A DNA stretch of 36,087 nt. Source: Acidobacteriaceae bacterium. GTDB lineage: Bacteria; Acidobacteriota; Terriglobia; Terriglobales; Acidobacteriaceae. Shown here piece by piece: positions 2,469 to 30,381 of the stretch. The stretch is from positions 1 to 36,087 of the forward strand of contig DATCDL010000362.1 of NCBI GenBank assembly GCA_036510715.1, given 5' to 3'. Position 1 is the first letter of the stretch. Each line of letters opens with the position of its first letter. Below the pieces are notes generated by a model that searched no databases, had not been told where the DNA came from, and worked only from the letters and a program-made list of their open reading frames with translations. A program made the position numbers and the translations under genes.

Positions 2469-2496
2469 TGCAAGTCACTGTTACGTATGTATGCAA
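2469..2496 (+). promoter_or_regulatory. Putative upstream activator (enhancer) site, copy 1
   Basis: TGCAAGT-cac-TGTTAC-gta-TGTATGCAA matches 10603-10628 (TGCAAGT-tct-TGTTAC-t-TGTATGCAA). Both start 143 bp upstream of the GG of a -24/-12 motif. Confidence 0.55.
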
Positions 2497-2610
2497 TCCG
2501 CTGCCATTTTTGGAGCGAGAACGTACGACCAAAGTAATCACGGCTTGCAAATTTCCAAAGAAATGGTCAATAAGCCATACTAGCGGGACTTTTTGTTGAT
2601 TGCACCCAAT

Positions 2611-2626
2611 AGGCCCTTGTCGTGCA
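2611..2626 (+). promoter_or_regulatory. Putative sigma-54 (-24/-12) promoter of operon 1
   Basis: AGGC-CCTTGTC-GTGCA has GG-N10-GC spacing. It is a weaker match to TGGCAC-N5-TTGCW but is positionally equivalent to the better copy at 10745. Confidence 0.5.
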
Positions 2627-2663: not shown

Positions 2664-2711
2664 CTGAGTCGCCGAGAAAAAAGCGAGGGCTGTAGCCCAC
2701 AGGGCGAAGCT
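2664..2711 (+). promoter_or_regulatory. Conserved leader element with ops-like hairpin, copy 1 (candidate UpxY loading/pause site)
   Basis: 44/48 identical to 10797-10844, with the last 33 nt identical (AAAAGCGAGGGCTGTAGCCCACAGGGCGAAGCT). The core GGCTGTAG differs by one base from ops GGCGGTAG. It lies in the 5' UTR of the antiterminator gene. Confidence 0.75.
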
Positions 2712-2769
2712 GTGCCTTTCTATGGGTTTGTCGGAGATGTCGCCCTGTAATAAGGAGAGGTGAAGCAAA

Positions 2770-3396
2770 ATGCTGACTTCGCAGAGTATTGACGCCGGAA
2801 CGCACGATTCCTCAGACTGGTGGGCGCTCTACACTCGCCATCAGCACGAAAAGACGGTGGCGACGATGCTGTCGGCAAAGGGCTTCGAGGTGTTTCTGCC
2901 ACTCTACGAGTCAACGCGGCGCTGGAAAGACAGAAGTAAACTGATTACGCTTCCGCTGTTCCCCTGCTATGTATTTCTCCGGGGAGGGCTCGATCGCCGG
3001 CTGCAGGTCGTGACGACCCCAGGAGTTCACATGATCCTGCTCCGCGGCGAATGCGTCGCGGTCATCCCGGAAGCTGAGATTCAGGCAATTCGAAGGGCAG
3101 TTGAAGGGCCCTTCCGCATAGAACCACATCCCTTCCTGAAGTGTGGCGAGCGGGTTCGCGTCACTCGAGGCCCCCTCGAGGGCGTCGAAGGGATTCTGGT
3201 TCGCAAGAAAAATCTGTATCGCCTGGTCCTTTCTGTGGACATGATGGCGAAGTCCGTTGCGATGGAAATTGATGCCACCGATGTGGAACCTGTGACAGCG
3301 CAGGGCTTCGCAGACGCGTTCCCGCCCGTTCAAGCCACAGGAGCGGGAAGGTTTGGTGAAACGGTACTTCATAGCGGCCAGCAAATAGCTAACTAA
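2770..3396 (+). CDS. UpxY/RfaH-like NusG-paralog transcription antiterminator
   Basis: The NGN domain is WWALYTRHQHEK..FLPLY...RRWKDR....PLFPCYVF and the KOW domain is GERVRVTRGPLEGVEGILV. RBS AAGGAGAGG at 2752-2760. It is the first gene of a polysaccharide operon. Confidence 0.92.
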   Translation: MLTSQSIDAGTHDSSDWWALYTRHQHEKTVATMLSAKGFEVFLPLYESTRRWKDRSKLITLPLFPCYVFLRGGLDRRLQVVTTPGVHMILLRGECVAVIPEAEIQAIRRAVEGPFRIEPHPFLKCGERVRVTRGPLEGVEGILVRKKNLYRLVLSVDMMAKSVAMEIDATDVEPVTAQGFADAFPPVQATGAGRFGETVLHSGQQIAN

Positions 3397-3419: not shown

Positions 3420-4208
3420 TTGAATGAACCCGGCCAGAAAATTGCATTACTGTCGCAGACCAGGGTATCCAGGATGCACCCTCACCAATTCACATCTCGC
3501 ATCGTGGCATCCTGTTCTGACTCGCTCAGAACTTCGACAGGATTTGTTTTGAAAGGTAACGCAACTCGCCTAATCAAATCAGGACTCCTCTTGACTGTTC
3601 TTTCCGGTTCTCTGCTGGGACAAGTGGCTACCCACAGTAAGGCTACTCGCGGATTCCCGGTAGCTACGATGGCGGCCTCGGCCGCACAGCCACTCGCACA
3701 ATCGGGCAACAAGCCACATGACGATAGCTTCGTCATTGGTAATGATGACGTCCTGGCGATCAATGTCTGGAAGGAATCTGACATCTCTCGGTCGATTCAG
3801 GTGCGATCGGATGGGAAAATTTCGTTGCCCTTGGTAGGAGAGGTTCAGGCAGCCGGTCGAACCCCCTTGCAACTCGAGCAGGATATTGCTGCGAAACTCC
3901 GAAACTACATCACCAACCCAGTAGTTACGATCATGGTCGAGCAGATTAACAGCGAGAAATTCAACATCCTTGGACAGGTCGTAAAGCCGGGATCATACTC
4001 ACTTACGCTGGCGCCAACGGTTGTGGATGCAATTGCGATTGCCGGTGGTCCCCGAGATTTCGCCAAGCAAAAAAGTATTTACATCCTGCGACAGAATGTT
4101 GGCGGCGGTGAGTTCCGGATTGTCTTCAATTACAAGAACTTCATTAAAGGAAAGAATTCACAGCAGAACGTCCAGCTTAGGCCGCACGACACAGTCGTCG
4201 TACCTTGA
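3420..4208 (+). CDS. Polysaccharide export (OPX/Wza-family) protein, short form with Poly_export and one SLBB domain; start codon uncertain
   Basis: PES motif FVIGNDDVLAINVW...VRSDGKISLPLVGEVQAAGRT; SLBB ILGQVVKPGSY...DAIAIAGG. It ends at LRPHDTVVVP with no C-terminal amphipathic helix. Confidence 0.9.
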   Translation: MNEPGQKIALLSQTRVSRMHPHQFTSRIVASCSDSLRTSTGFVLKGNATRLIKSGLLLTVLSGSLLGQVATHSKATRGFPVATMAASAAQPLAQSGNKPHDDSFVIGNDDVLAINVWKESDISRSIQVRSDGKISLPLVGEVQAAGRTPLQLEQDIAAKLRNYITNPVVTIMVEQINSEKFNILGQVVKPGSYSLTLAPTVVDAIAIAGGPRDFAKQKSIYILRQNVGGGEFRIVFNYKNFIKGKNSQQNVQLRPHDTVVVP

Positions 4209-5548
4209 AGGCTTTCATGCTTAAATGTGTATGTCTTTTTCTCGCAATACTCGTGGCGACCCCGGTCTGGTCTCAGGCCACACCGGATGAGGAAACCCGA
4301 ATGCTGATACCCCCGCCTGTGAGCGCTGAAGCCTATCCGACAACGGTCGGAGATGAAGAACGGTCAAATTATCTGGCCACCGGTTTGATCCTCAATACCG
4401 CATACGATGACAATATCCTCGCAGGCGGAAGTACCAATCCGATTCATGACGTTACTTACTCAGTTTGGCCCACGTTTACGCTGAACCTGACAACCCCACG
4501 GCAAAAGCGGACGCTGACGTATAGTCCAGGCTTCACCTTCTATCAGCACACCACCGCTCTCAATGCAGCAGATCAGAATGCAGCACTGAATTTTCAATAC
4601 CGTCTGAGCCCATATACGACCTTAAACATAAACGACTCCTTTCAGAAGATCTCGAATGTGTTCAATCAGCCCAATCCTCTTTCTGGGGTCGCGATATCGG
4701 GTTCAGCGCAGGCTCAACCAACAGGGGTTGTCGCTCCTTTCGCTGAACAACTCAGTAATACCGCGAATATGGGACTAAGTTATCAATTCAGTATGAATAG
4801 CATGATGGGCTTTGGAGGGATTATCACTCAAAGTCATTACCCCAATCCAGCCGAAGCCTCAGGTCTCTACGACTCGAACTCGCGCGGAGGTTCGGTTTTC
4901 TACAGCCAACGTTTGTCCAGTACCCAGTATGTTGGTTTGACCTATCAGTATTTAGAAAGTCAGAGTAAGCCTGTAAACGCCCAGGCCAATCCAGCGAATT
5001 CACAGACTGAGGTGCAGACCCATACCCTGTTGCCTTTTTACACGGTCTATTTGAATCCAAGGCTTTCCTTCTCTTTCTCAGGTGGTCCGCAACACGTTGA
5101 CGCCACCCAATCTCTCTCGGCACCGTTCCGCTCGTGGATGCCCTCTGCGATGGCAAGCATCGGATGGCAAAGGAGCCATACAAATCTTGTGGCCAGTTAC
5201 TCGCGAACGGTTACTGGGAGCACGGGCCTGTCTGGGGCGTTCACTTCGAGTAGCGCAAATGCCTCTGTACGCTGGCAGATGACACGCGCCTGGATCATAG
5301 GGTCTGCGGCGAGTTATGTGATCAACAAGAACGTTATCCATTTGTTCTCTCCGTATCTTCCGGGGGGACACACTGTTTCAGGAGCCGTCTCTGCTGAGCA
5401 CTCGATAAGCGATCACTTCAAGGCAGAACTTGGCTACGTCCGACTGCACCAGAGTTATAGCCGCATTGCGGTGATTTCCAACTCTCCTGATAGCAATCGC
5501 GAGTTCATCTCCGTCTCCTACCAGTTCACAAGGCCATTAGGAAGATGA
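4205..5548 (+). CDS. Putative outer-membrane beta-barrel protein, probable partner of the short OPX protein
   Basis: Signal peptide (LFLAILVATPVWS-Q). Ser/Thr/Tyr-rich alternating strands, early YDDNI motif and terminal strand FISVSYQF. Overlaps the OPX gene and the co-polymerase gene. Confidence 0.7.
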   Translation: MKAFMLKCVCLFLAILVATPVWSQATPDEETRMLIPPPVSAEAYPTTVGDEERSNYLATGLILNTAYDDNILAGGSTNPIHDVTYSVWPTFTLNLTTPRQKRTLTYSPGFTFYQHTTALNAADQNAALNFQYRLSPYTTLNINDSFQKISNVFNQPNPLSGVAISGSAQAQPTGVVAPFAEQLSNTANMGLSYQFSMNSMMGFGGIITQSHYPNPAEASGLYDSNSRGGSVFYSQRLSSTQYVGLTYQYLESQSKPVNAQANPANSQTEVQTHTLLPFYTVYLNPRLSFSFSGGPQHVDATQSLSAPFRSWMPSAMASIGWQRSHTNLVASYSRTVTGSTGLSGAFTSSSANASVRWQMTRAWIIGSAASYVINKNVIHLFSPYLPGGHTVSGAVSAEHSISDHFKAELGYVRLHQSYSRIAVISNSPDSNREFISVSYQFTRPLGR

Positions 5549-7128
5549 TCATGGAAGAAACCTACGAGGAACAGAGCTCCGAAGGACTCGATATCCAGCG
5601 TTACCTACAGTTAGTCAAGCGCCACCATATCCACTTCCTGATACCGCTATTTCTGGGATGGCTTATGGTATGGGGTGCAAGCTGGGTTTTGCCGGCACGC
5701 TATAAGTCAAACACGCTGATCCTAGTGGAGCAGCCCACGATGCCGAAAAATTATGTCGAGTCAAATGTCAACGACGATTTGCAGAATCGACTTCAAAGTA
5801 TTACGCAACAGATTCTGAGCCGCACCCGCCTTCTTCTGATCATTGATAAGTTGCATCTCTACGGCGACAGTCGACGTCACCTCACTCCAGATGAAAAAGT
5901 CGAACTCATGCGCAAAGACATAGACATCGTGCTCGTGCGTGACTCTCACGATGACCAGATCACAGCATTCAAAATCAGCTATTCGACTCGTGATTCTCAT
6001 GTTGCTCAGCAGGTAACTCGCGAATTGTCGAGCCTGTTTATCACGGACAATTTGCAAGTACGCCAGCAACAGTCCGAAGCCACAACAAAGTTTCTCGAGA
6101 GCCAGTTGGAAGATGCGCGAGCGAGCCTTGCCGACCAGGAAGCGAAGGTTCGAGATTTCAAAGGGAAGCATGAAGGTGAATTGCCTTCTCAGGAAGCGAG
6201 CAACCTCCAAATTCTCAGCGGCCTTCAGGCGCAGCTACAGAACGAACAGGATACTCTCAACACCGCAAAACAGCAGCGGGTCTATCTCCAGACACTCATA
6301 GAGCAATACCGAACTCTCCATTCGAACCCTGGGAGTGCCGACAGTACGCCGACTGGCGATCAGAACATCGATCGACTAAAGTCAAAGCTCGCAGACCTTA
6401 GGTCTCGCTACACCGACAATTACCCGGAAGTCGAGAACCTGAAAGACGAGATAACCAAGGCCGAAAGGACGAGAGACACCATCAATGCTGAGCCGAAGAC
6501 ACTACGCAATGGTGTGAGACAGTTCGACGCAACAGATGCTTCAAAGAATTCGGCGGCCTTGCAACTGCAAGGCCAGTTACAAGCCAACCAGGTAGAGATT
6601 GCGAATCGCGGGCAAGCAATTACTGAGCTAAAAGCAAGAGTCAACGGCTATCAGGATCGCTTGAACACTGAACCGGCGAGCGAGGAGCAGTTAGCAGATC
6701 TGACCCGTGGCTATGATCAATCCAAGGCTAATTACGACGATCTGTTAAAGAAGGAAAACGAATCGGAGATGGCGACTAGCATGGAACAAATGCAGCAAGG
6801 TGAGCGGTTCAGCATCCTTGATCCACCTAGCTTACCGTTGAAGCCGGAATTTCCTAACCGTCTTAAATTCTGTGGCGCCGGGTTGGGTCTCGGCCTCGTT
6901 TTGGGCCTCATTGTGGCGGGTGGATTTGAATATATGGATGACCGTTTGCATAGTGAGAAGGAAATAAAGCTCCTGCTTCCAGTAGCGATCCTATCGGAAA
7001 TTCCTGAGATTGTGAGTCCATTGGATGAACGAATCAGTAAGAAAAGAATGGTCTTGGGATGGACCATGGCTGCATTAGCCTTCGCTGCCATTCTGGCTGG
7101 TTCTGCGGTCAGCTATCTACACGATTAG
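5545..7128 (+). CDS. Polysaccharide co-polymerase / chain-length determinant (GumC/Wzc N-terminal part)
   Basis: N-terminal TM, then LPARYKS..LILVE and ILSRTRL, a long coiled coil, the FSILDPPSLPLKPEFPNR motif and C-terminal TMs. Confidence 0.9.
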   Translation: MIMEETYEEQSSEGLDIQRYLQLVKRHHIHFLIPLFLGWLMVWGASWVLPARYKSNTLILVEQPTMPKNYVESNVNDDLQNRLQSITQQILSRTRLLLIIDKLHLYGDSRRHLTPDEKVELMRKDIDIVLVRDSHDDQITAFKISYSTRDSHVAQQVTRELSSLFITDNLQVRQQQSEATTKFLESQLEDARASLADQEAKVRDFKGKHEGELPSQEASNLQILSGLQAQLQNEQDTLNTAKQQRVYLQTLIEQYRTLHSNPGSADSTPTGDQNIDRLKSKLADLRSRYTDNYPEVENLKDEITKAERTRDTINAEPKTLRNGVRQFDATDASKNSAALQLQGQLQANQVEIANRGQAITELKARVNGYQDRLNTEPASEEQLADLTRGYDQSKANYDDLLKKENESEMATSMEQMQQGERFSILDPPSLPLKPEFPNRLKFCGAGLGLGLVLGLIVAGGFEYMDDRLHSEKEIKLLLPVAILSEIPEIVSPLDERISKKRMVLGWTMAALAFAAILAGSAVSYLHD

Positions 7129-7140
7129 GTTCAGCTCCCT

Positions 7141-8130
7141 ATGTACAAAGCATTCTTTAATCTAACGCGCAATCCATTCGAGCTCACACCTAATCCCACT
7201 TGCTTTGTCCCGACCAAGCGGCACAGCGAAGCGCTGACGGCGCTTTACTATGGCATACGGCAACACAAGGGTTTTGTTGTGTTGACTGGAGAGGTGGGCA
7301 CCGGAAAGACCCTTCTGCTCCGGTGTTTGCTCGCGCTCTTAAAGGAGAGCAAAGATATTGCCTACGCATATCTATTTAATGGGCGGCTTTCTCCTACTGA
7401 GTTCCTACAGTACATTGTCTCCGACTTCAGGCTTCCGGTTACCGGTAAAAACAAAAGCGATCTATTGTTTGATCTCGGTCAGTTCTTAGGCTCGCGAGGC
7501 TCACAGAAAATGACTACCGTGCTCATAGTAGATGAGGCACACCATTTGTCCGAGGACATTCTTGAGGAACTCCGTCTTCTATCGAACCTTGAAACAGACG
7601 ATGACAAATTGTTGCAGATTGTATTGGTGGGACAGCCCGAACTTGACGAGAAGCTGGATTCTGTCGGACTTAGACAACTCAAACAAAGAATCGCGGTTCG
7701 CACGCAGCTTGGTTCGCTGGATGCTGAGGAGACGAAGCGATACATCGAGCAGCGATTGCAGATTGCTGGAGCAGACTTATCCGCTGATCCACTATTCTCT
7801 GCTCAAACCATTACGGCAGTGCATCGCCATTCGAAAGGCCTGCCGCGCCTGATTAACACAATTTGCGACAATGCCCTGATGACCGCCTATGCGAGAGGAC
7901 TGCAAAGCGTCACTCCGGAAGTCATAGGAGATGTGGCAAAAGAGTTTCGCCTCGATATGGTTGGCCCGCCTGACGCTGCAAGAAGCAAGCTTTCCAGTGA
8001 GATGGATGTCCAACGGATCACAAACCTGCTGCTTGATTTGTACGCAGCCATGCGACGACCAATCGCAAGCGATACAGACTTGGGCGCATCTGCAGCCATC
8101 GAAGTGAGCAAACATGAGCCATATATTTGA
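7141..8130 (+). CDS. ExeA-family AAA ATPase (similar to the ATPase associated with EPS/PEP-CTERM loci)
   Basis: MYKAFFNLTRNPF start, Walker A GEVGTGKT, Walker B LIVDEAH, LVGQPEL, LRQLKQRI and GLPRLINTICDNAL. Confidence 0.92.
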   Translation: MYKAFFNLTRNPFELTPNPTCFVPTKRHSEALTALYYGIRQHKGFVVLTGEVGTGKTLLLRCLLALLKESKDIAYAYLFNGRLSPTEFLQYIVSDFRLPVTGKNKSDLLFDLGQFLGSRGSQKMTTVLIVDEAHHLSEDILEELRLLSNLETDDDKLLQIVLVGQPELDEKLDSVGLRQLKQRIAVRTQLGSLDAEETKRYIEQRLQIAGADLSADPLFSAQTITAVHRHSKGLPRLINTICDNALMTAYARGLQSVTPEVIGDVAKEFRLDMVGPPDAARSKLSSEMDVQRITNLLLDLYAAMRRPIASDTDLGASAAIEVSKHEPYI

Positions 8131-9112
8131 CGCACTACAAAGATCGGAAACTGAAAGCTCTGGTATAGACTTGTCGGCGCTGCCGGGAGTGACTGTGCTG
8201 CTGCAGCGCGTAGAACGTCAAGCAGCTTCGAAATGGGAAGCGGCGGCTCTGTCTAAGGAGTCTGGGGCGGCGGAAACCACAGAGACCGAGAAGCCATTCA
8301 GCTCAATAGCGGTGCAGCCAGTGGCGAAGGAACCTGAACATTCAGCCAGCGAGCTTTCTCAGCCCGATGAACAGTCCGCTCCGTTCGGCCAATTCGGGTC
8401 CCTGCAAGTCTCGCTCGATTCTCAGAGCCGGCTACTCAGTCTCACGGACAGCGATAGCCCAACAGCGGAAGCCTTCCGACTTCTAGGGGTGCGATTGCGA
8501 CATCTCCGTCGGCAGCGGTTGCTTAAGACGGTGCTGATAACGAGCACAATTCCGCAAGAAGGCAAGAGTCTAGTCGCTGCGAACCTGGCCTGCACTCTTG
8601 CCCTAAGAACTCATGAAAAAATCCTGCTGCTAGAAGGAGACCTGCGACGTCCGTCTCTATCGCAGAAGTTCGGGCTCGGGAGGAATCCTGGTCTCTGTGA
8701 ATGTCTGCAGGGCGCGGCCAGTCTAAGGGCTAATATCTACCAACTCGAAGGCCTGAACCTCTGGATTCTTCCGGCGGGAAGCACTCCGAGCAATGCGCAG
8801 GAACTCCTGCAATCAGGAAGACTGTCTGCGCTGATGGATGAGTTGGCCACATGGTTTGATTGGATCGTCATCGATTCTCCTCCCGTGTTGCCGTTGGCTG
8901 ACACAAGCGTCTGGATGCGGTTGGCCGATGGAGTCCTTCTCGTTACGAGGCAGGGAACTACGGAGAAGCGGCAGTTACAGAGGGGACTCGAAGCACTCGA
9001 CCATAAGAAACTGATCGGTGCGTTAGTGAATGGCTCCACGAATGCAGCTGACAGCAGCTACTACTACAGCCAAGCGCCTGCCCCGCAATCGGATGGGGTT
9101 TTAGCGAAATGA
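8114..9112 (+). CDS. CpsD/CapB-family bacterial tyrosine kinase
   Basis: AEAFRLL, Walker A TSTIPQEGKS, A' EGDLRRP, Walker B IVIDSPP and a C-terminal Tyr cluster SSYYYS. Confidence 0.92.
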   Translation: MSHIFDALQRSETESSGIDLSALPGVTVLLQRVERQAASKWEAAALSKESGAAETTETEKPFSSIAVQPVAKEPEHSASELSQPDEQSAPFGQFGSLQVSLDSQSRLLSLTDSDSPTAEAFRLLGVRLRHLRRQRLLKTVLITSTIPQEGKSLVAANLACTLALRTHEKILLLEGDLRRPSLSQKFGLGRNPGLCECLQGAASLRANIYQLEGLNLWILPAGSTPSNAQELLQSGRLSALMDELATWFDWIVIDSPPVLPLADTSVWMRLADGVLLVTRQGTTEKRQLQRGLEALDHKKLIGALVNGSTNAADSSYYYSQAPAPQSDGVLAK

Positions 9113-9304
9113 CTGACTTTGATTGGGAGCCTGTCTCTTATCGTCTAGTCTCCGAACTTGCGATTTGTAGATCCCTACCTACGCCACCCATCGCAATCAG
9201 ATGTTTAATGTTGCCTCAGAAATGATACGGACACAAGCAGGCCAGGAGCTGTTGTCATTAGTGGCCAGCGAATAGTGAAGTGACCGTCTCGAGAGGAGTT
9301 ATTT

Positions 9305-10459
9305 GTGACTATGTTACGTATAGATAAAGCTTCAAATTCAGCTGATCCTTTACTCGCGCAGTTAGGTGCTCAAGAGCGCGACATACTGAACCAAGAAACC
9401 TTTAAGCGCATGATTGCTGTCGAGCGCAAAAGGACGGAGCGTTCAAGAGAACCCTTCTTGCTTATGCTGCTGGAGCCAGGAAATCGTCAGGTTTCGGAAA
9501 AGAACGGGAAGGCTCTCGACAAGATGCTGTCTGTGCTGCTGCTATCCATCAGGGAGACAGACGTAATCGGTTGGTACAAAGACCAGGCAGTTGTTGGTGT
9601 GATATTTACAGGACTCGCGAGTGATGACAAGAACTCGATCCTCAGCGCTATCCTCAGCAGGGTCAGCAACGCGCTAAGAGATCGGTTGACACCGGACCAA
9701 TTCAATCAAGTCAGCATCTCCTTTCACTTCTTTCCCGATGACTGGGATCAAGATACCCCCGGGCGTCCAAGCAATTTGACTCTATATCCAGATCTCGTGA
9801 GCTCCGATAGGGGCAAATATTCCCTGTTGCGAATTAAGCAAGCGATAGATATTCTTGGCAGTTCGCTCATGCTGATCCTTTGCAGCCCTCTCTTTCTCGT
9901 GGTAGCACTAGCGATCAAAGCGTCATCCAAAGGCTCAGTGCTCTTTAGACAACAGCGGGTCGGACAGTACGGTCAAAGCTTTACATTTCTCAAATTTCGT
10001 TCGATGCATGTCGACAATGATGAAACCGTTCACAAAGAGTATGCAACGAAATTGATCGCTGGTGAGGCGGACGGTAGACACTCGGATAGGAATGGTGATC
10101 GCGTATTCAAGCTCACGAATGATACGAGGGTTACCCGAGTGGGGAAGTTTTTGCGACGAACCAGTCTGGATGAACTGCCGCAGCTAGTGAATGTTCTAAA
10201 AGGAGATATGTCACTCGTTGGCCCTCGGCCGGCGCTTCCGTACGAGGTGGCCGCTTACCAAACGTGGCACCGCCGTCGGTTATTACAGGTCAAGCCAGGC
10301 ATAACTGGCTTGTGGCAAGTGACTGGCCGAAGCAGGGTAAAGTTTGACGAAATGGTTCGGCTGGATCTGCAATATGCAACGTCGTGGTCTCCATTGCTGG
10401 ATATTAAGATCCTCATGCATACTCCTCGCGCGGTGATCCTAGGCGCAGGCGCCTATTGA
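9305..10459 (+). CDS. Priming phosphoglycosyltransferase (bacterial sugar transferase) with an N-terminal degenerate GGDEF-like domain
   Basis: C-terminal motifs [35 protein letters not shown] and [10 protein letters not shown]. The N-terminus follows the GGDEF pattern. RBS GAGGAG at 9293-9298. Confidence 0.9.
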
Positions 10460-10602: not shown

Positions 10603-10628
10603 TGCAAGTTCTTGTTACTTGTATGCAA
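10603..10628 (+). promoter_or_regulatory. Putative upstream activator (enhancer) site, copy 2
   Basis: TGCAAGT-N7-ACTTGTA is an imperfect inverted repeat and matches 2469-2496 at offset 8134. Confidence 0.55.
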
Positions 10629-10744
10629 CACCTCCAATTCCAAAGGTGGGCTAGGGCAGGAATGTGCGGTGTCGAAAACCCGAGTTATCTGAGAGATGAG
10701 CGATAAATAGCCACTGCTGCCGGCGTTCGAAGGACCGTGCAGAA

Positions 10745-10760
10745 TGGCCATTGCCTTGCA
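10745..10760 (+). promoter_or_regulatory. Putative sigma-54 (-24/-12) promoter of operon 2
   Basis: TGGC-CATTGCC-TTGCA matches TGGC-N7-TTGCW with exact GG-N10-GC spacing, inside a 540-bp intergenic gap. Confidence 0.65.
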
Positions 10761-10796: not shown

Positions 10797-10844
10797 CTGA
10801 GCCGCAGAGTGAAAAGCGAGGGCTGTAGCCCACAGGGCGAAGCT
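10797..10844 (+). promoter_or_regulatory. Conserved leader element with ops-like hairpin, copy 2
   Basis: 44/48 identical to 2664-2711. It starts 38 nt after the -12 GC (39 nt in copy 1) and precedes a same-strand gene run of more than 25 kb. Confidence 0.75.
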
Positions 10845-10998
10845 ACGTCTTGTCGGATTATTATGGCAACGGCTGTTGAGCTAAAGAGCAAGGTGAGCAC
10901 GAAGCAGACGAAGCGGAAGTTCCTATTGCTGTATTGGACTCTTCTTTCTCCGACACGCATTCCCTTCATCCGCAATTGTGGAGATTGGTGAAAATATA

Positions 10999-11997
10999 AT
11001 GAATTTTGGTGTCATAGGCTATGGCTACTGGGGGCCAAATGTTGTGAGAAACCTCGCCAGTCTGGAGGACTCCCAGGTGCTCACAATAGCGGAGATGAGT
11101 CCCGTTGCGCGTGAGCGCGCACAGAAGGCTTATCCGGGAATCCATGTAACGCCAGATGCCTCAGACGTATTCTTGTCAACGGAAATAGACGCCGTCGCTG
11201 TCGTCACTCCGGTCTGGACGCACTATGAGCTGGCAAAAGCTGCATTGCAGAACGGCAAGCATGTGTTCGTTGAAAAGCCATTCACCAGCAATGTTGCCCA
11301 GGCTGAGGAATTGATCGACCTAGCCCAGAAGAAGAATCTCAAGATCATGGTGGATCACACGTTCTTATTTACAGGGGCCGTAAAGAAAATATGGAAATTG
11401 CTGGAGGAAGGGACTCTTGGCAAGCTCTATTACTACGATGCTACGCGCGTCAACCTAGGCCTTTTCCAGCACGACATCAATGTCCTATGGGATCTTGCAC
11501 CGCATGATCTCTCCATCATGGACTACCTCATCAAAGGAAGTCCCGAGGCGATCGTTGCGACCGGCCAAAAGCATCTGAATGGCCACGAAGATGTAGCTTA
11601 TATGACACTATATTTCCCGGAGAAGGTCATAGCTCATATCAATGTCAACTGGCTCTCTCCGGTCAAGGTCAGGACTACTCTCATCGGCGGAGAGAGACGA
11701 ATGCTGGTCTGGAATGATTTAGAAGCGGACGAAAAAGTAAAGGTGTATGACAGGGGAGTGGACATCTCCAGCCGCGAGGGCGTCTACGAGTTGTTAGTTA
11801 ACTACCGGTCTGGCGATATGTGGGCTCCACAACTGGAACAGACCGAGGCCCTGCGACAGGAACTCGCCTACTTCGTGGATTGCATCTCAAGTGGCGAGGA
11901 GCCGCTCAACAACGGATGCGCTGGCCTGAGGGTGATTAAGATGCTGGAAGCAGCCAGCGAGTCAATAAACAAGCGAGGAGCTCTGGTCTATCTATGA
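10999..11997 (+). CDS. Gfo/Idh/MocA oxidoreductase (WbpB/WlbA-like nucleotide-sugar 3-dehydrogenase)
   Basis: GVIGYGYWG, HVFVEKP and WDLAPHD motifs. ATG 10999 is preferred over GTG 10978. It is adjacent to an acetyltransferase and an aminotransferase. Confidence 0.88.
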   Translation: MNFGVIGYGYWGPNVVRNLASLEDSQVLTIAEMSPVARERAQKAYPGIHVTPDASDVFLSTEIDAVAVVTPVWTHYELAKAALQNGKHVFVEKPFTSNVAQAEELIDLAQKKNLKIMVDHTFLFTGAVKKIWKLLEEGTLGKLYYYDATRVNLGLFQHDINVLWDLAPHDLSIMDYLIKGSPEAIVATGQKHLNGHEDVAYMTLYFPEKVIAHINVNWLSPVKVRTTLIGGERRMLVWNDLEADEKVKVYDRGVDISSREGVYELLVNYRSGDMWAPQLEQTEALRQELAYFVDCISSGEEPLNNGCAGLRVIKMLEAASESINKRGALVYL

Positions 11998-12491
11998 ACC
12001 CCTACAACTGCATCTCGGACGACGTCAAGTTGGGCACAAACGTCCGATTATCAAAATTTATCAACCTGTACGGATGCGAGATTGGGGACGAGACGAGGAT
12101 TGGTGCATTCGTGGAAATTCAAAAGAATGCTATCGTCGGCAAATGTTGCAAGATCTCCAGTCACACATTTATCTGCGAGGGTGTTGTCATCGAGGATAAC
12201 GTATTTATCGGCCACGGAGTGACGTTCATTAATGATAGCTATCCGCGAGCAACGACTCTTGAAGGTAATCTACAAGCCGAGGCTGACTGGAAAGTCGAAC
12301 ATACAGTCATAAGGAAGGGTGCATCCATTGGCTCAGGTACTACGATTCTTTCCGAAACTGACATAGGCGAAAATGCCATTGTGGGTGCTGGCAGCGTTGT
12401 TACCAAAGATGTCCCACCCAATGCTATCGTGGCCGGCAATCCGGCTAGGGTCCTGCGTTACATCGAAGACGCTGCAAGAAGGTCACAATGA
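11994..12491 (+). CDS. Hexapeptide-repeat N-acetyltransferase (WbpD/WlbB-like)
   Basis: NLYGCEIG..TRIGAFVEIQK, CKISSHTFICEGV, FINDSYPRA and VGAGSVVTKDVP...VAGNPAR. Confidence 0.9.
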   Translation: MNPYNCISDDVKLGTNVRLSKFINLYGCEIGDETRIGAFVEIQKNAIVGKCCKISSHTFICEGVVIEDNVFIGHGVTFINDSYPRATTLEGNLQAEADWKVEHTVIRKGASIGSGTTILSETDIGENAIVGAGSVVTKDVPPNAIVAGNPARVLRYIEDAARRSQ

Positions 12492-13735
12492 ATATTTCCA
12501 ATAGCATTCCCTTTCTTGATCTAGTTACTCCGCATGTGGAGTTTGAACGAGAACTCACTGGAGTATTTCGTCGAGCTCTGCACACGGCCGATTTCGTCGG
12601 CGGTCGTGTGGTGGCAGAATTTGAGAAGGCATTCGCAACCTTCTGCAGTGCTAACCATGCGGTTGCAGTTAGCAGCGGCACGGATGCGCTACGCTTCGCC
12701 ATTGTGGCGTGCGGAATTCAACCGGGCGACGTAGTGGTGACTGTGCCGCACACCTTTATTGCCACCACGGAGGCTATTTCGCAAGCTAGTGCCGTCCCGG
12801 AATTCGTCGACATCGATGAGCATACCTACAACCTATCGGTCGATATGCTACAAAAGTTCCTTGAAAAACAGTGTACGCGAGATAAAGCAGGGAAGCTCAT
12901 CAGTCTTCGGAGTGGCCGGCCTGTAACCGCAGTTGTGCCAGTGCATCTCTATGGCCAAATGGCCGACATGGATTCGATCCTCAGTCTGGCTACCGAGTAT
13001 GGCCTTACCGTGATTGAGGATGCTTGTCAGGCTCACGGCGCGGAATACTTCTCGAGGAAACACGATTGTTGGATGAAGGCGGGATCGATGGGCAGGGCAG
13101 CCGCGTTCAGTTTCTACCCTGGCAAGAACCTGGGAGCATGTGGAGAGGGCGGTGCAGTAACCACTAACGATACCAATCTAGCTGAAAAAATCATGATGCT
13201 TCGTGATCATGGCCAGGTAAAAAAATACTATCACGAGGTGGAAGGCTACAACGGAAGATTAGACACGATACAAGCCGGTCTCTTGAATGTAAAGCTTCCT
13301 CATCTTAGAGATTGGAATGTGCAGCGTCGCGAACGGGCATGTGAATACAGCCGCCTTCTGTCAAGGAATGAAAGCCTCCGTCTGCCGTTTGAACCTTCCT
13401 GGTCTCGCGCTGTCTATCACCTCTATGTCATTCGAACTGAAGATCGTACGGGCTTGATGGAGCATTTGGGGAAAGCCGGCATCGGCACGGGAATACACTA
13501 TCCAGTTCCCCTGCACTTGCAGAAAGCCTATACGTCCCTGAACTACGGTCTGAGAGATTTCCCAGTTGCGGAACGTGTTGCCTCCGAAATTGTCTCTCTG
13601 CCGATGTTCCCGCATCTCACGTCAACACAGCAAGCCATTGTGGCCAACGAGATTCTCGCCTTCATTTCGAAGACTGGTCGTAAGCGGACGGAAAGGGCAG
13701 AGAACACGTTGGTCTCAGGGGAGAGAGTCGCATGA
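12488..13735 (+). CDS. DegT/DnrJ/EryC1/StrS aminotransferase (WbpE/WlbC-like)
   Basis: IPFLDL, SSGTDAL, PVHLYGQ, IEDACQAHGA and FSFYPGKNLGACGEGG (PLP lysine). Confidence 0.93.
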   Translation: MNISNSIPFLDLVTPHVEFERELTGVFRRALHTADFVGGRVVAEFEKAFATFCSANHAVAVSSGTDALRFAIVACGIQPGDVVVTVPHTFIATTEAISQASAVPEFVDIDEHTYNLSVDMLQKFLEKQCTRDKAGKLISLRSGRPVTAVVPVHLYGQMADMDSILSLATEYGLTVIEDACQAHGAEYFSRKHDCWMKAGSMGRAAAFSFYPGKNLGACGEGGAVTTNDTNLAEKIMMLRDHGQVKKYYHEVEGYNGRLDTIQAGLLNVKLPHLRDWNVQRRERACEYSRLLSRNESLRLPFEPSWSRAVYHLYVIRTEDRTGLMEHLGKAGIGTGIHYPVPLHLQKAYTSLNYGLRDFPVAERVASEIVSLPMFPHLTSTQQAIVANEILAFISKTGRKRTERAENTLVSGERVA

Positions 13736-13900
13736 GATAGTGCCCCTTTTGCGAGAGGAAGCAAGGTCTTGGCGCGCCAAAGATCGGATCGCAAGTGTCC
13801 TGGTAATGGAAAAGTGGCATCAACGCCCCGGCGCCATTTGAGGGTATTGTCCGCAAGGTTCGGTGTAGCTGATGGCCCCGGCAGAAATGGACGACAAGAC

Positions 13901-15127
13901 GTGAAGAAAAGAGTCGCCACTGGAGTCTGTATCGTTGTCGAAAACCTACCGGTACCTCTTGATAGGCGCGTATGGAAGGAGGCTTGCGCACTGCGTGATG
14001 CGGGGTATCGTGTATCTGTAATCTGTCCCAAAGGAAAGGGCTTCTCGGCAGGATACGAGGCTCTCGATGGAATCGATATCTACCGCCATCGCACATGGGA
14101 GGCTTCTAGCAAAGCCGAGTATATCTTGGAGTATGGTGTGGCTCTTGCAGCTGAGTTTTGTTTAGCATTGAAAGTCTTCGCGCGGACCAGATTCCGCATT
14201 CTGCAGGCATGCAACCCTCCAGACACAATTTTCCTGATAGGACTGCTTCTGAGGCCTCTCGGTGTCCGATTTATCTTCGACCAACACGACCTTGGTCCAG
14301 AGCTCTTCGAGGCAAAGTTCGGCAAACGCAGTGGCACGCTTCTTAGGCTAGTTCGATTGCTGGAGTTGTGCTCGTTCCGAGCGGCGAGCACCTGCATCGC
14401 GACAAATGAATCGTTCAAGGAGATTGCCATCACCCGAGGGGGCAAGCGCCCGGAAGTTGTCTTTGTTGTACGGAACTGTCCTGATCTAGCGACATTCCAG
14501 CGACCCCAGAGTCGAAACGGCAACGGATTCGGCAGATCGTACCTTGTAGTCTATGTGGGCTTCATGGGGACGCAAGATGGCCTGGATTTGTTGCTCGATG
14601 CTATCGAACACATTGTGAAACGCGAGAATCGGCAAGATACCCATTTTCTTCTCGTTGGGGGAGGAACCGTACTTCCCGAGTTGCGACAAGTGATTGCCAA
14701 GAAGGATTTGAGCCCCTTTGTTACACTCACCGGTCAGGTTTCCCATGACGAAGTTGTTGCCTTTCTCTCTGTCGCAGACGTGGGAGTGGCACCCGATCCC
14801 AAAAATGCGATGAATGATAACTCGTCGATGATCAAGATTTTTGAATACATGGCGTTCGGATTGCCGATTGTACTCTTCGACTTGAAGGAGGGACGGCGCA
14901 CCGCAGGAGCCGCAGCGCTTTACGCCGTTCCGAACGACCCCATCAATTTCGCTGACCAGATCGGTCGGTTGCTCAACTCCAGAGAACTCCGTGAAGAACT
15001 TGGTGAATGTGGCCGAAGGAGAATTGAAGAGAGCCTCAACTGGGATATAGAGAAAGCGTCACTGATTCGAGCATATGAAACAGCGCTCCAGTCTGGCCCG
15101 GTCTTGGGTGAAGCGGGGAGCCGCTAA
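13901..15127 (+). CDS. Glycosyltransferase family 4 (start probably GTG 13901; the ORF extends to 13769)
   Basis: IVVENLPVPLDRRVWKEA, ACNPPD, FDQHDL.PEL, YVGFMGTQDG and KIFEYMAFGLPIV. Confidence 0.9.
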   Translation: MKKRVATGVCIVVENLPVPLDRRVWKEACALRDAGYRVSVICPKGKGFSAGYEALDGIDIYRHRTWEASSKAEYILEYGVALAAEFCLALKVFARTRFRILQACNPPDTIFLIGLLLRPLGVRFIFDQHDLGPELFEAKFGKRSGTLLRLVRLLELCSFRAASTCIATNESFKEIAITRGGKRPEVVFVVRNCPDLATFQRPQSRNGNGFGRSYLVVYVGFMGTQDGLDLLLDAIEHIVKRENRQDTHFLLVGGGTVLPELRQVIAKKDLSPFVTLTGQVSHDEVVAFLSVADVGVAPDPKNAMNDNSSMIKIFEYMAFGLPIVLFDLKEGRRTAGAAALYAVPNDPINFADQIGRLLNSRELREELGECGRRRIEESLNWDIEKASLIRAYETALQSGPVLGEAGSR

Positions 15128-17280
15128 TGCCCACCAGCGATTTCCATATCCACCTGTTCACGGATAACTCGCGATCAGAACCATCTCGAGGATGGCGTAG
15201 TCTCAACGAACATGCGAGAGGTGCCGATGCCGCAAAATATCGCCGGATCATAAATCTGTACAGATTTTTCGTATGGGCCGTTCTCTTTTTTACCCTGACG
15301 TTTTCTGTGAGGTGCTATTCGGCGGAGATCGTCTTTATTCATTCAGGTGGTAGTCCTTCCCCTGAGGAGCACGAACTTGAACTCGCGACCCAGTTTTATG
15401 GATTGAGTCTGAAGACCGTCACAGCCAGCACCGAACAAATCGCCCTCGCGTTTGGAGCCATTCAGACGGATACAACTCTGGCGGTCGCAATTGAGGCAGA
15501 CACACTAGCCAAAGTTAATCAAAAGGCACTGCTGCGAGCCCTGCGTCGAGGGAGTGAGAGCAGTGTGCCTTTGCTGATTCTTGGAGTGACACCAGAGACG
15601 GACCAAACTCTCCTAAGCGCATGGTCAGGAAGTACTGTAATCGGGGCCGGGTCTCTACGTAGCTCATCGGGGCTGCGTTACTCAGTTGGCAACGAGTCAG
15701 CAGTGACGCGACAACTAACCGGCATCCAATTCCCCTTCCCGGGTGATAAAAGCTTCTATCTTCACATCGAGAATCAAAGCAATTCTAAAGCAATCATGGC
15801 TGTCTGGAAGGATCATCAATCCTTTCCAATCTTCATTGAGACGGATGTCCACGGACAAAAGATTTTTTTGCTTTGCAGGACGCTCTTTCCAGTAAACAAC
15901 ACAGCTAATTGGACGGCCGACAACACAGAGGACGCATTTGAGAAGATCGTCCCGGTGATGATGTTCACAAAGTATTCTGCGGGCGAACGAGGTTGGCACG
16001 CTCTCCATCATTACGCAAACCTAACCATCGACGATCCATGGCTCCGCGAGCCCTACGGAAGCCTCAGCTATCAGGGTCTCCTCAAGGAGATGGAGAAACA
16101 CAATTTCCACACGACCATCGCCTTTATACCCTGGAATTTCGATCGGAGCCAACCTGGCGTTGTTTCTCTCGTGCGCAACCATCCTGACAGATTCTCGATC
16201 TGCATTCATGGAGACACTCATGCGCACAAGGAGTTTACAGACTACGGAAGCAAGCCGTTGAATGTTCAAGTGGCAGCTCTTAAGCAATCAGTGGCCAGAA
16301 TGGAGAAATTTCAAGCGTATTCAGGAATTCCTTACGATAGGGTGATGGTCTTTCCCCACAGCATCGCACCAGAACAAACACTCGAAGCTCTGAAGGCCAA
16401 TGGTTACCTCGCTACTATCAATTCTCAGAATGTTCCTATGGACTCAGTTAAGCCCACGGACCTCCTGTTTGCCATGCGATCCACCACGCTTTTGTTTGGC
16501 AATTTTCCGAGTATTATTCGCTATCCAGCCGCACTACCGACTCACGGCTATGCTGTAGCGATTGAAGATTTTCTTGATAACCCATTGTTCTATTACGCGC
16601 ATCAGGACTTCTTCGCAAAGGGCATCGAAGCATTCGACGGATTGGCAGATGAAGTGAACAGTGTTGAGCCGGACACTAAATGGTCTAGCCTTGGCGACAT
16701 AGTGAAGCATCTGTACTTGTTGAGACTGAGAGAAGATTCAAACTATGATGTGCTTGCGTTGTCGAGCAGCCTACTTCTGGATAACACCTTCGGACGCGGT
16801 GTGGCCTTTTATATCAAGAGAGCAGAATCCAGCCCGACGGCCATCATTTCGGTGAGCGTGGACGGTCGACATATTCCCTTCCAACTACACGAGGGATATC
16901 TGAGCCTTAACGTGTTCGTCCCAGCGGGTGAGACTCGTAGCATTGTGATCCAGGATGGGAACACCACGGACTTTTCCTCAATAAGCACCTCGAAGAAATC
17001 TCTGTATGTTTATGTTCTCCGAAGGATCTCCGACTTCAGAGATATAACGTTATCAAGAGTCCAAGTCGGGCGAGCGTTTACAGCTTTGTATTACACCCAT
17101 AGAGGGTCCGCTGAGCTGCTGATTCTGGGTGGGCTCGGACTCATAGTGTTCGGTACATTTGGAGGCTGGAGGCTGTTTGTGATGGTAAGAAGAAAGAACG
17201 TCGTCCAGATAGCCCACAAACACTCTTCTGATCGACAACCTCGCGACGGAGGGGAAATGATTAGCCAGTCCCCCAAGTGA
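15127..17280 (+). CDS. Membrane-anchored periplasmic protein with a polysaccharide-deacetylase-like (NodB-type) domain
   Basis: Hydrophobic segments near both ends. The motifs LTIDDP, ICIHGDTH and VFPH parallel the CE4 motifs TFDDG, H(S/T)xxH and RxPY. Confidence 0.6.
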   Translation: MPTSDFHIHLFTDNSRSEPSRGWRSLNEHARGADAAKYRRIINLYRFFVWAVLFFTLTFSVRCYSAEIVFIHSGGSPSPEEHELELATQFYGLSLKTVTASTEQIALAFGAIQTDTTLAVAIEADTLAKVNQKALLRALRRGSESSVPLLILGVTPETDQTLLSAWSGSTVIGAGSLRSSSGLRYSVGNESAVTRQLTGIQFPFPGDKSFYLHIENQSNSKAIMAVWKDHQSFPIFIETDVHGQKIFLLCRTLFPVNNTANWTADNTEDAFEKIVPVMMFTKYSAGERGWHALHHYANLTIDDPWLREPYGSLSYQGLLKEMEKHNFHTTIAFIPWNFDRSQPGVVSLVRNHPDRFSICIHGDTHAHKEFTDYGSKPLNVQVAALKQSVARMEKFQAYSGIPYDRVMVFPHSIAPEQTLEALKANGYLATINSQNVPMDSVKPTDLLFAMRSTTLLFGNFPSIIRYPAALPTHGYAVAIEDFLDNPLFYYAHQDFFAKGIEAFDGLADEVNSVEPDTKWSSLGDIVKHLYLLRLREDSNYDVLALSSSLLLDNTFGRGVAFYIKRAESSPTAIISVSVDGRHIPFQLHEGYLSLNVFVPAGETRSIVIQDGNTTDFSSISTSKKSLYVYVLRRISDFRDITLSRVQVGRAFTALYYTHRGSAELLILGGLGLIVFGTFGGWRLFVMVRRKNVVQIAHKHSSDRQPRDGGEMISQSPK

Positions 17281-17585
17281 TGTTATTAAACTGATAATCC
17301 AATTCTAGGCCGAACTTTTCGGTTCGGAGTGACTTCGCTCAGAAGCGGGCTGCCAACGCCGTTGTGCTCTCAGGAAGCTCTTCGAAGTCACGACTTTCGC
17401 TCCGATGTTGGTCGCAGAAGTAGCCCTTCAATATGTTCTTTTCGACATCACCATGAAACCATGGCAAGCTCCTAGAGATGAGCAAGCTCCAATTGTGATC
17501 TCGATCGTTGGGTGAACATCTCATTAACTGCATGATTCTCCAATAGCCCCAAAAAGTGGCCTCACCATCCTGCCGGATTTCCATT

Positions 17586-18461
17586 ATGCCAACCCAGCTG
17601 ACGAGCTATGTCGTGATTACGCCTGTGAGGGACGAGGAGAAGCACCTTCAGGCAACGATCGAGAGCATGATTCAACAGACTGCATTGCCGAAACAATGGG
17701 TAATCGTGAATGACGGATCGAAGGATGCTACAGGACAGGTCATCGACGATTATGCGAAGCGTTACCCATGGATAAGAGCCGTCCACCGCCAGGACCGCGG
17801 ATTTCGCAAAGCAGGTGGCGGCGTTGTGGACGCATTCAATGACGGATGTCGGGCGTTGACATGTAGTGATTGGGATTTCATCGTCAAATTCGACGGTGAC
17901 CTAATCTTTGACGCCAATTATTTTGATAGATGTTTCGACGAGTTCCAGTGCGATAGCAAACTTGGGGTCGGAGGTGGAGTAATCTGCTATGTCGTCGCCG
18001 GAGAGAAAAGCTTCGAAGATGCACCAGCATTCCATGTTAGAGGAGCAACAAAAATTTACCGTAGGGCCTGTTGGAATACCATAGGAGGGCTTTTGCCGGT
18101 GCCGGGTTGGGACACAATGGATGAGGTGAAAGCCAATAGTCGCGGCTGGACCACAAGAAGCTTTCCGCATCTGCACCTTATTCACCAACGGGACACAGGT
18201 TCAGCGGACGGCCTCTGGCCGACACTTATTAAGTATGGTCGTGCCAACTACATCTGCGGGTATCATCCTCTCTTTATGATCGGAAAATGCTTGAAGCGTC
18301 TAGCACGAAGGCCTTACTTCATTGGCTCCGTTGGACTCGCGTACGGATTTGTCTCCGGATATCTGATGAAAGTTCCACAAGTTGATGACTCTGTGGCTGT
18401 TGAGTATCTTCGTCGTCAGCAAATCAGGCGAATTCTCGGGAAAGAAACGATGTGGAGATAG
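17586..18461 (+). CDS. Glycosyltransferase family 2
   Basis: YVVITPVRDEE, WVIVNDGSKD, KFDGD and GWDTMDE. ATG 17586 is the preferred start. Confidence 0.9.
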   Translation: MPTQLTSYVVITPVRDEEKHLQATIESMIQQTALPKQWVIVNDGSKDATGQVIDDYAKRYPWIRAVHRQDRGFRKAGGGVVDAFNDGCRALTCSDWDFIVKFDGDLIFDANYFDRCFDEFQCDSKLGVGGGVICYVVAGEKSFEDAPAFHVRGATKIYRRACWNTIGGLLPVPGWDTMDEVKANSRGWTTRSFPHLHLIHQRDTGSADGLWPTLIKYGRANYICGYHPLFMIGKCLKRLARRPYFIGSVGLAYGFVSGYLMKVPQVDDSVAVEYLRRQQIRRILGKETMWR

Positions 18462-18560
18462 AGGCGGGTTCTCCATGAGCTTCTCGAATCGAAAGGATTA
18501 GTTGACAGAGAGTCTGCTGACGCAGCGCGCTCGGTTGACATCATAATCTCTCTTCACATA

Positions 18561-19316
18561 ATGAACGTGGCAGGATTAGGTCCCATGACATCGAAAACCG
18601 AACAGGTAAGATCGTTGTTTGAGATTCCTCAAAAGTATCTCGACCCGAGACAGTACGACATTAGAATTCGGGTTGAGACTGTGCAGCAGTTCACTGATGC
18701 GTCGAAGTTCGAACGTGTATTGGATATTGGTTGTGGGGATGGCTCGATCTCTTTGCCCCTGCTGCCGTGCTGTAGCAAGCTCACGCTGCTGGACCTTTCC
18801 ACAAACATGCTCGATCTTGCATCTAAGCGTATCCCATCTGGTCGCGTGAACGATGTCGAACTGATAAGCGGGGATTTCATGGGTGCCAACTTTGAGCCTC
18901 AATCATTTGATCTCATTCTCTGCATTGGCGTTCTTGCACATGTGGATTCTCCGGCCGCCGTCATTGAGAGGGTGGCCCGGCTAGCAAAGCCAGGTGCTTG
19001 GGTGATTCTAGAGTTCACCGATAGCTTCCATTTGTGGGGTGTACCTGTCGTTCTGTATCAAAAGTCATTGGCGCTGCTTCGACCTGAACCGTACAAGCTA
19101 AATCGTCTTAAGAAACGTCAGGTGCTAGGCTTGTGTAGCTCTAATGGCCTCGGGGTATCAGCGGTCTACCGATATGGGTTACCGCCTCTCGGGTCTCACA
19201 AGCTTCTCAATCAGAGAAAGATGTACAGGTTGACTCGGTATTTGTTCGGCACTTCTGCCCGAAGCCAAAATGGCTGGATGGGGAACCAATTCATTTATCA
19301 GTTCAAGAAGTCGTAG
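18561..19316 (+). CDS. Class I SAM-dependent methyltransferase
   Basis: VLDIGCGDG, LDLSTNML, FDLILCIGVLAHV and LAKPGA. Confidence 0.9.
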   Translation: MNVAGLGPMTSKTEQVRSLFEIPQKYLDPRQYDIRIRVETVQQFTDASKFERVLDIGCGDGSISLPLLPCCSKLTLLDLSTNMLDLASKRIPSGRVNDVELISGDFMGANFEPQSFDLILCIGVLAHVDSPAAVIERVARLAKPGAWVILEFTDSFHLWGVPVVLYQKSLALLRPEPYKLNRLKKRQVLGLCSSNGLGVSAVYRYGLPPLGSHKLLNQRKMYRLTRYLFGTSARSQNGWMGNQFIYQFKKS

Positions 19317-19362
19317 CTAGTCTCTTCAACCACGTGAAGTCGAGCATACCTGGAGTTCACGA

Positions 19363-21168: not shown

Positions 21169-21174
21169 ACCAAA

Positions 21175-21957
21175 ATGATGAGAGAAGAACTTGGGCTAAT
21201 TCGAAGGAAAGTGTTGTCATCAGTGTACCCGCGTCATGCTGCGTTGGGAACTCGCGGACCAATCATATCGTTTACCTTCGACGACTTCCCTCGGTCGGCC
21301 TTGACAGTTGGTGGACGCATACTTAACTCCTACGGACTTTGCGGCACTTACTATGCTTCTATTGGTCTGATGGATGGCGTAAATCATTTGGGTGATCAGT
21401 TTCGGCGCAAAGACCTAGACATCCTTCTGCGTGACGGCCACGAACTGGCAAGCCATACGTTCGCGCATATCTCATGTCGCAAGGTCTCGTGTTCTACATA
21501 CAGAGAAGACGTGAAAGAAGGCAGAAGAGCTATAGAAAGGATAACTGGGCGGCCGGATTTCGGTAATTTTGCATTTCCATTTGGGGCGGTCACGTTGAAT
21601 GCCAAGAGGTTGATCGGACAGGACGTGGTCAGTTCCAGGAGCATCTGGAGTGGTTGGAATGGTCCGCAGGTTGACCTCAATTTGCTGCGGGCCAACAGCC
21701 TATACGGTAATAGCGACAAATGCGCTCAAGTGAAGGAACTGATTCTGGAGAATGAGCGGCAAAAGAGTTGGCTCATTTTCTATTCTCATGATGTGTGTCC
21801 TGCACCGTCTCGATTTGGTTGTACGCCTGAGCTATTGCAATTCGCGATTTCGTTCGCATCAAGGCGGTGTGCGCGAATTGCGACGATAGCCGAGGTTGTA
21901 ACTGAATTAATTGCAAGCCCCCTAGACGAGGCTCGTGTTGCGGAAGCTTCGGCCTAA
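21175..21957 (+). CDS. Polysaccharide deacetylase (CE4/NodB family)
   Basis: ISFTFDDFP, GHELASHTFAH, FAFPFG and LIFYSHDV. Confidence 0.88.
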   Translation: MMREELGLIRRKVLSSVYPRHAALGTRGPIISFTFDDFPRSALTVGGRILNSYGLCGTYYASIGLMDGVNHLGDQFRRKDLDILLRDGHELASHTFAHISCRKVSCSTYREDVKEGRRAIERITGRPDFGNFAFPFGAVTLNAKRLIGQDVVSSRSIWSGWNGPQVDLNLLRANSLYGNSDKCAQVKELILENERQKSWLIFYSHDVCPAPSRFGCTPELLQFAISFASRRCARIATIAEVVTELIASPLDEARVAEASA

Positions 21958-22136
21958 TGTGAATTACTCAGAGCAGTTCTGGTGGGTCTTTAATTGGGCG
22001 GGTACAATTTTTTCTAGCTGTGCGATGAGACGCGCCCAAGTGCTTGTTCAAAGCGTATCTTTCGCTAAGTAGAAAGTTAGTTACTTACATTGACGGTCCA
22101 GGGTAGGGGCTGAGCGCGATCGCGGCACCGGAAGGA

Positions 22137-30357: not shown

Positions 30358-30381
30358 ACCCCAGAGGAAGAGACAACTAGA

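Follow-up and report, generated by a model that had tools for sequence, protein, structure and literature searches.

The two copies of a 48-nt repeat in the window (the whole 36,087-nt stretch of Acidobacteriaceae DNA analyzed here) are quite probably opsX-type pause-and-loading sites for the UpxY-type NusG paralog of the polysaccharide cluster in which they lie, serving transcription from predicted sigma-54 promoters. The copies (Table 1) are identical at 44 of 48 positions and share an exact 33-nt run (2679-2711) at an offset of 8133 nt, confirming the two near-identical 5' leader segments about 8.1 kb apart that a sequence-only reading of this DNA had described. A repeat search of the window extended the match to 77 nt at 78% identity; the runner-up ungapped 48-mer in the window matched at 27 of 48 positions, and the repeat had a BLAST E-value of 5e-13 against its own genome. 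The two copies lie between genes, on the + strand. They precede the NusG-paralog gene and a Gfo/Idh/MocA gene, respectively, the second lying in the 518-nt gap between the latter and the priming sugar transferase gene. A search with the 29-nt core and up to 7 substitutions found no copy beyond these two in the genome (4.3 Mb, completeness about 70%). The case that would have spoken against the earlier reading, a dispersed genomic repeat unrelated to polysaccharide operons, is excluded by this restriction of full copies to two leaders and by the link of the element to polysaccharide leaders headed by NusG paralogs. Concerted evolution of the two copies was considered and rejected because identity within genomes was not consistently higher than identity between genomes. 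A small ORF overlapping copy 2 (10737-10991) had no Pfam match, and the sequences after the second copies were dissimilar among relatives when compared by eye; the ORF was therefore treated as spurious.

Table 1. Coordinates of the repeat, its conserved parts, the predicted promoter elements and the cluster genes in the window.
Feature	Position	Strand	Basis or remark
Candidate enhancer motif TGCAAG..TGTTAC..TATGCA, presumed target of a sigma-54 activator	2469..2495	+	ends 117 nt before the -24 GG
Sigma-54-type -24/-12 site, unit 1	2610..2626	+	GG 2612-2613, GC 2624-2625; predicted start near 2637
48-nt repeat, copy 1	2664..2711	+	repeat search, BLAST
Conserved upstream box TGTAGCCCACAG	2691..2702	+	spans -23 to -12 relative to the presumed pause; probably recognized as duplex DNA
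ops-equivalent 12-mer GGCGAAGCTGTG	2703..2714	+	GCGAAGC mini-hairpin 2704-2710; inferred pause T2713
UpxY-type NusG paralog (NGN and predicted beta-barrel KOW) that heads the cluster	2770..3396	+	NCBIfam NF033644, AlphaFold2
Unit 1: Wza-like export protein, unannotated ORF, chain-length determinant, AAA ATPase, tyrosine autokinase, priming sugar transferase	3420..10459	+	
Candidate enhancer motif, second copy	10603..10627	+	ends 119 nt before the second -24 GG
Sigma-54-type -24/-12 site, unit 2	10744..10760	+	GG 10746-10747, GC 10758-10759
48-nt repeat, copy 2	10797..10844	+	repeat search, BLAST
Second box and ops-equivalent 12-mer GGCGAAGCTACG (10836-10847)	10824..10847	+	inferred pause C10846
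Unit 2: Gfo/Idh/MocA oxidoreductase (likely start ATG 10999), hexapeptide transferases, DegT aminotransferase, glycosyltransferases, methyltransferases, flippase, others	10978..31161	+	

The first gene of the cluster matched the NCBIfam UpxY model NF033644 with 119.2 bits (cut-off, 100) and was below the cut-offs for the RfaH (TIGR01955, 72.9 versus 144.5 bits), LoaP and NusG models. Its best AlphaFold2 model combines an NGN domain with an all-beta C-terminal domain, whereas RfaH has an autoinhibitory alpha-helical one; this is a single prediction and is compatible with fold switching. The genes of unit 2 are all co-directional over about 20 kb, and the cluster runs to at least 31161. Same-strand export or assembly genes were found in 72 of 75 homologous loci having more than 3 kb downstream. 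For four cluster proteins the best NCBIfam matches were PEP-CTERM-system families, all below cut-off, and the large ORFs 4205-5548, 15127-17280, 23435-25060 and 25298-26722 had no Pfam or NCBIfam match. The cluster is immediately preceded (1-2029) by a gene for a choice-of-anchor D/Ig-like repeat protein, built of six tandem repeats of 321 nt whose identity to the first is 64-94%; several homologous loci also have a gene of this kind at their flank. Beyond the polysaccharide genes, the + strand goes on to encode (31939-35526) a heme-oxygenase-like iron redox enzyme and two alpha/beta hydrolases.

The conserved element proved to be TGTRRCYCACAG-GGCGRAGCT-N-Y-R (2691-2714), which was present no more than 200 nt upstream of the paralog gene in 78 of 80 homologous leaders, these being the best 80 of 248 confirmed homologous loci, picked by protein alone. 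The count was made with a search pattern that had two variable positions and the fixed letters ACAG, GCG and AGC; the two exceptions (L066 and L102) had no element within the 200 nt. The exact GGCGAAGC was found within 300 nt upstream in 67 of the 80 loci. Outside the search pattern, among the 78 leaders, positions -23 to -21 were T (77), G (78) and T (78), position -3 was always T, position -1 was always T or C, and position +1 was G (56) or A (22), while position -2 was variable (D in the consensus). Two relatives retrieved by DNA search (G012 and G035) have the same sequences as two of the 80 loci and added nothing to the counts. Copy-1 and copy-2 12-mers both match the consensus-pause pattern G-10, Y-1, G+1 in the presumed register. 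Conservation was strong out to -23 and weak to about -36, with boxes that differed among paralog clades. Nearest-neighbour DNA folding of the 12-mer gave no structure; models of this type do not account for the mini-hairpin motif, and GCGNAGC and GCGNNAGC are described as very stable DNA mini-hairpins (PMC13037366). In four leaders (L053, L061, L062 and L190) a second GCGRAGC core stands 57-90 nt upstream of the main element, which suggests tandem pause sites.

These comparisons support the idea, advanced in the sequence-only reading, of an ops-like element for a UpxY-type factor, since the element is tied to the leaders of UpxY-type NusG paralogs heading polysaccharide clusters, and they move its position. 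The proposed cognate ops variant, GGCTGTAG, was present in only 17 of 79 distinct homologous leaders. GGGC-TGTA-GCCC, which had been taken as the core, exists at 2687-2698 and has all four pairs intact in only 20 of the 79. The end at 2711 was set too early, as the ops equivalent extends 3 nt further, to 2714. Conservation well beyond 12 nt was borne out; of the additional RNA or DNA recognition that had been proposed from it, recognition of duplex DNA looks right and recognition of RNA structure does not. Finally, that reading overlooked the sigma-54-type promoter ahead of each copy.

In both window leaders, the GC of a GG-N10-GC site lies 77-78 nt ahead of the 12-mer, and the candidate enhancer motif, a similar form of which occurs in many sister leaders, lies further upstream. 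As both copies stand at this distance behind their own sigma-54-type site and share the motif, the duplicated unit is the whole promoter-leader module, and the arrangement makes it likely that one factor serves two transcription units. A sigma-70 scan found no site in either leader, and the genome encodes rpoN and 8 strong sigma-54 activator matches. With a scoring rule whose consensus was taken from general knowledge, sigma-54-type sites were detected 55-115 nt upstream in 27 of 91 leaders, as against 1 in antisense, 0 in coding and 1 in far-upstream controls; because most homologous leaders have no such site at that distance, sigma-54 control is a subclade feature. At the junction between the sugar transferase and gfo genes, 12 of 63 loci had both a second element and a second promoter, none had the element only, 1 had a promoter-like site only, and 50 had neither. 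The 12 double-positive loci belong mostly to one subclade, and the tree indicates about 1-2 gains and one joint loss (L052/L055/L057); they thus represent few events rather than 12, and a Fisher P for co-occurrence is not meaningful. A sigma-54 activator gene stands just upstream of the UpxY-type gene on another contig of the same genome (G000:C533:25281-26318) and in 37 of 80 homologous loci. Loci of the subclade to which the window belongs mostly lack such a gene.

Within the genome, a profile score above 6 was reached at only four sites, namely the two copies and the leaders of paralogs on contigs C533 and C146. A fourth paralog, on C488, has the core behind a different upstream box. All of these paralogs head polysaccharide clusters, and no core precedes the housekeeping-type nusG match on C522. 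On its own, the 12-mer has 93 genomic occurrences, 84 of which fall within ORFs; the upstream box must therefore supply the specificity. In a reverse test, metagenomes were scanned with a 21-nt motif ending at -3; at least 120 stretches matched, and 80 were analyzed. Among the matches listed, a NusG paralog lay downstream on the sense strand in 57 of the 76 loci with at least 150 nt of downstream sequence and on the antisense strand in none; the other 19 included 8 that precede polysaccharide-locus families, 1 that precedes a PilZ gene and 10 without a Pfam match. Outside the motif, all 80 of these motif-selected matches had Y-1, and 78 had R+1. One exact 21-nt motif (L253:901-921) stands before a Poly_export gene on a contig of 33% GC, far from the acidobacterial value; the element may cross phyla.

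A UpxY-family match was found in 98 of 151 genomes of the class. In a class-level set of 98 leaders (the 90 top-ranked non-self matches of 167, and 8 genus-level loci), GCGNAGC occurred on the sense strand in 61 and on the antisense strand in 5, with 13.9 expected, and the full element was called in 59. The core was conserved across several families and with proteins down to about 35% identity. Among the same 98, no element could be called for 39 paralogs, among them entire clades of families f99-f101, indicating that the element is not universal to the family. For 20 loci of f99-f101, 1.5 kb of upstream sequence was available and contained no convincing site. Many of the UpxY-family genes without a nearby element in these families (L133-L152, L155, L161, L165 and L166) lie directly behind another gene; such genes may have their site where the operon begins, or none. 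Upstream boxes varied by protein clade as taken from a quick tree (for example TGTAAGTCACAG, TGKGACTSARAG and CCRAGT/CCGACT types), and because kin share labels, this agreement is no proof of co-evolution. A strict 20-nt pattern was matched in 2 of 401 phylum-wide genomes, the window's own genome included; the exact signature is thus clade-restricted, and a looser pattern is required. The nearest homologous loci are almost all from Acidobacteriaceae.

The closest counterpart is found in Bacteroides, where UpxY is reported to read, across some 40 bp, a YGCGNAGCR non-template hairpin and the duplex DNA upstream of it (Saba et al. 2024, PMC11685472). The same GCGNAGC non-template core is present here, and GCGAAGC is identical to that of the B. 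fragilis class-1 site opsE (CTGCGAAGCATA; PMC11685472). As described there, opsX sites likewise lie in the leader of a UpxY-family gene heading a polysaccharide cluster (start codon at +57 here, at +41/+42 in class 1), show conservation into the upstream DNA, and occur with several paralogs per genome with differing boxes. However, the flanking pair is R:Y here and Y:R in Bacteroides (GT 43, GC 9 and AT 4 of 56 leaders, with a purine at -11 preselected). The presumed pause is one base further from the hairpin than in opsX; the variable loop base stands at -7 here and the key hairpin position at -6 in the Bacteroides paper (PMC11685472), so that the pause could be one base off. In the Bacteroides account, moreover, opsX sites have an RNA pause hairpin ending at -9 to -16, for which we found no support. 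UpxZ, the adjacent anti-factor in Bacteroides, had no PF06603 match in this genome (70% complete), and the gene after the paralog is Wza-like. The promoters are of sigma-54 type here and invertible in Bacteroides, and two sites accompany one factor gene, in a different phylum.

The element also resembles the E. coli ops12 (GGCGGTAGCGTG), described as a consensus pause with TG at positions 11-12 and a hairpin whose G5 and T6 are contacted by RfaH (Zuber et al. 2018, PMC5995543). Both are 12-nt elements with GG at 1-2 and YG at 11-12 in the consensus-pause register, both contain a GCG..AGC mini-hairpin, and in both cases one factor would serve more than one leader. The loop has one base here and two in E. 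coli, and it is without the G5 and T6 read by RfaH; instead of the ops 12-mer GGCGGTAGnnTG, the window has GGCGAAGCTGTG and GGCGAAGCTACG. Unlike E. coli ops, the element has an extra conserved box 12 nt further upstream and its leaders match no Rfam leader model; unlike RfaH, the factor is encoded inside its target cluster and scores below the RfaH cut-off. By its sequence, the 12-mer combines the ops register (GG ... YG) with the one-base loop of opsX, and we infer that it works like opsX and ops. It is a strict member of neither class, since it departs from the ops sequence, from the Y:R flank and from the association with UpxZ. Three homologous leaders (L197, L213 and L216) have a GCGGTAGC core of E. 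coli ops type behind the same kind of box (TGGGACT) and are, as judged from these letters, natural intermediates from ops to opsX. A third system has a similar layout: in PEP-CTERM/PrsR, an activator motif and a sigma-54 site with -24 (GG) and -12 (GC) precede exopolysaccharide-associated and PEP-CTERM genes (Haft et al. 2006, PMC1569441). The likeness is one of layout; the motif spacing is about 118 nt here, as against a mean of 63 in that system, and the available text of that paper mentions no ops-like element.

The near-palindromic TGT-N5-ACA might instead be a duplex-DNA operator to which a regulator (repressor or activator) binds; alternatively, an ECF promoter might have the box as its -35 element and the YRTC 16 nt further on as its -10 element. 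TGT-N5-ACA is near-invariant in the close set of homologous leaders, and the spacing from a TGTAAC/TGTAGC box to YRTC resembles that of ECF promoters. We consider this explanation unlikely, however, because the most highly conserved bases form the would-be spacer GGCGRAGC, the element is strictly sense-oriented, E. coli-type ops cores substitute for the core at the same place, and the nearest relatives have a separate sigma-54-type promoter 64-78 nt upstream of the element. In the class-wide set, the palindrome is often broken (pair -22:-14 kept in 30 of 56) and the upstream letters are still conserved, which fits reading as duplex DNA. It is similarly improbable that the leader acts as a structured RNA, either a LoaP-type hairpin or an attenuator, bound as RNA by the NusG paralog. 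GGGC-UGUA-GCCC and a terminator-like stem (2698-2714) are possible folds of copy 1, and some two-sided changes are seen in a weak GCUC/GAGC stem near -55; the named helix scores were reached by 13-16 of 500 shuffles on three measures, by 57 and 186 on the other two, and lie within the range that the tool reports for unstructured related sequences. Against this, the 91-nt leaders had no folding advantage over shuffled sequences (z -0.02 and +0.77), RNAalifold applied to 26 leaders of the sigma-54 subclade gave -1.13 kcal/mol with no compensatory pair and no consensus of note, and the GGGC-UGUA-GCCC hairpin is broken in most leaders, as counted above. For the long-range pause hairpin, the leaders' own arms did slightly better than shuffled arms (48 of 79 cases) and had no advantage over swapped arms (42 of 79, P 0.86). 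We did not adopt the terminator-like stem, which needs bases -2 to +1 that vary in homologs; neither the stem near -55 nor the long-range hairpin was established. The sequence-only reading had pointed to an Rfam/Infernal search and to structure conserved among homologous leaders; the latter gave only the marginal scores above, and the former returned no match, neither for the window at the gathering threshold nor for 2500-2800 at E up to 10. A conserved RNA pause hairpin is not supported.

That the repeat is a functionless leftover of a recent duplication of the promoter region seems very improbable. Promoter, upstream motif and spacing are common to both leaders, which do therefore descend from a duplication. 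Twelve relatives nevertheless keep both copies despite diverged flanks, the 33-mer is exact in two other genomes, and the conservation of the core across families contradicts a leftover.

Under the preferred reading, an opsX-type loading site, a sigma-54 promoter would be fired by an enhancer-binding activator, and about 75 nt further on polymerase would pause at G-11 G-10 ... Y-1 R+1 (T2713 or C10846). The exposed non-template strand would then form the GCGAAGC mini-hairpin, and the NGN domain would read this hairpin and the duplex box TGTRRCYCACAG, so that the factor-modified polymerase could cross the 7.7-kb and 20-kb-plus units without premature termination. With two promoters in the cluster, each leader has a loading site to itself, and the one upxY-like gene would serve both the unit to which it belongs and, in trans, unit 2. 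A broader proposal, which we regard as plausible but tentative, is that enhancer, sigma-54 promoter and opsX-type site form a cassette copied or lost as a unit, that one UpxY-type factor licenses several units in trans, and that, in the absence of UpxZ, paralogs share a GCGRAGC mini-hairpin and owe their specificity to the 12-bp duplex box upstream of it. If true, this would place the system between UpxY of Bacteroides, with a single operon per factor, and RfaH, with many operons per factor, and enhancer-dependent initiation would be coupled to specialized antitermination.

The mechanism class itself is already known from Bacteroides and E. coli. In the literature that our search reached, which lay outside subscription journals, figures and bioRxiv supplements, there was no ops-like site in Acidobacteria and none paired with a sigma-54 promoter, and the available text of two NusG-family papers (PMC7819879 and PMC7593976) does not mention one in Acidobacteria. 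Recruitment signals are known for few specialized NusG paralogs, and the present element adds a candidate at base resolution from Acidobacteria, a group abundant in soil for which the control of exopolysaccharides has been little studied. It makes testable how co-resident paralogs tell their sites apart without UpxZ and whether sigma-54 units use such antiterminators, and it offers predicted pause positions and natural one-base and two-base loop variants bridging opsX and ops. Cultured strains are also at hand, as both copies are present in Tunturiibacter lichenicola MP8S11 and T. psychrotolerans X4BP1 (L047 and L058).
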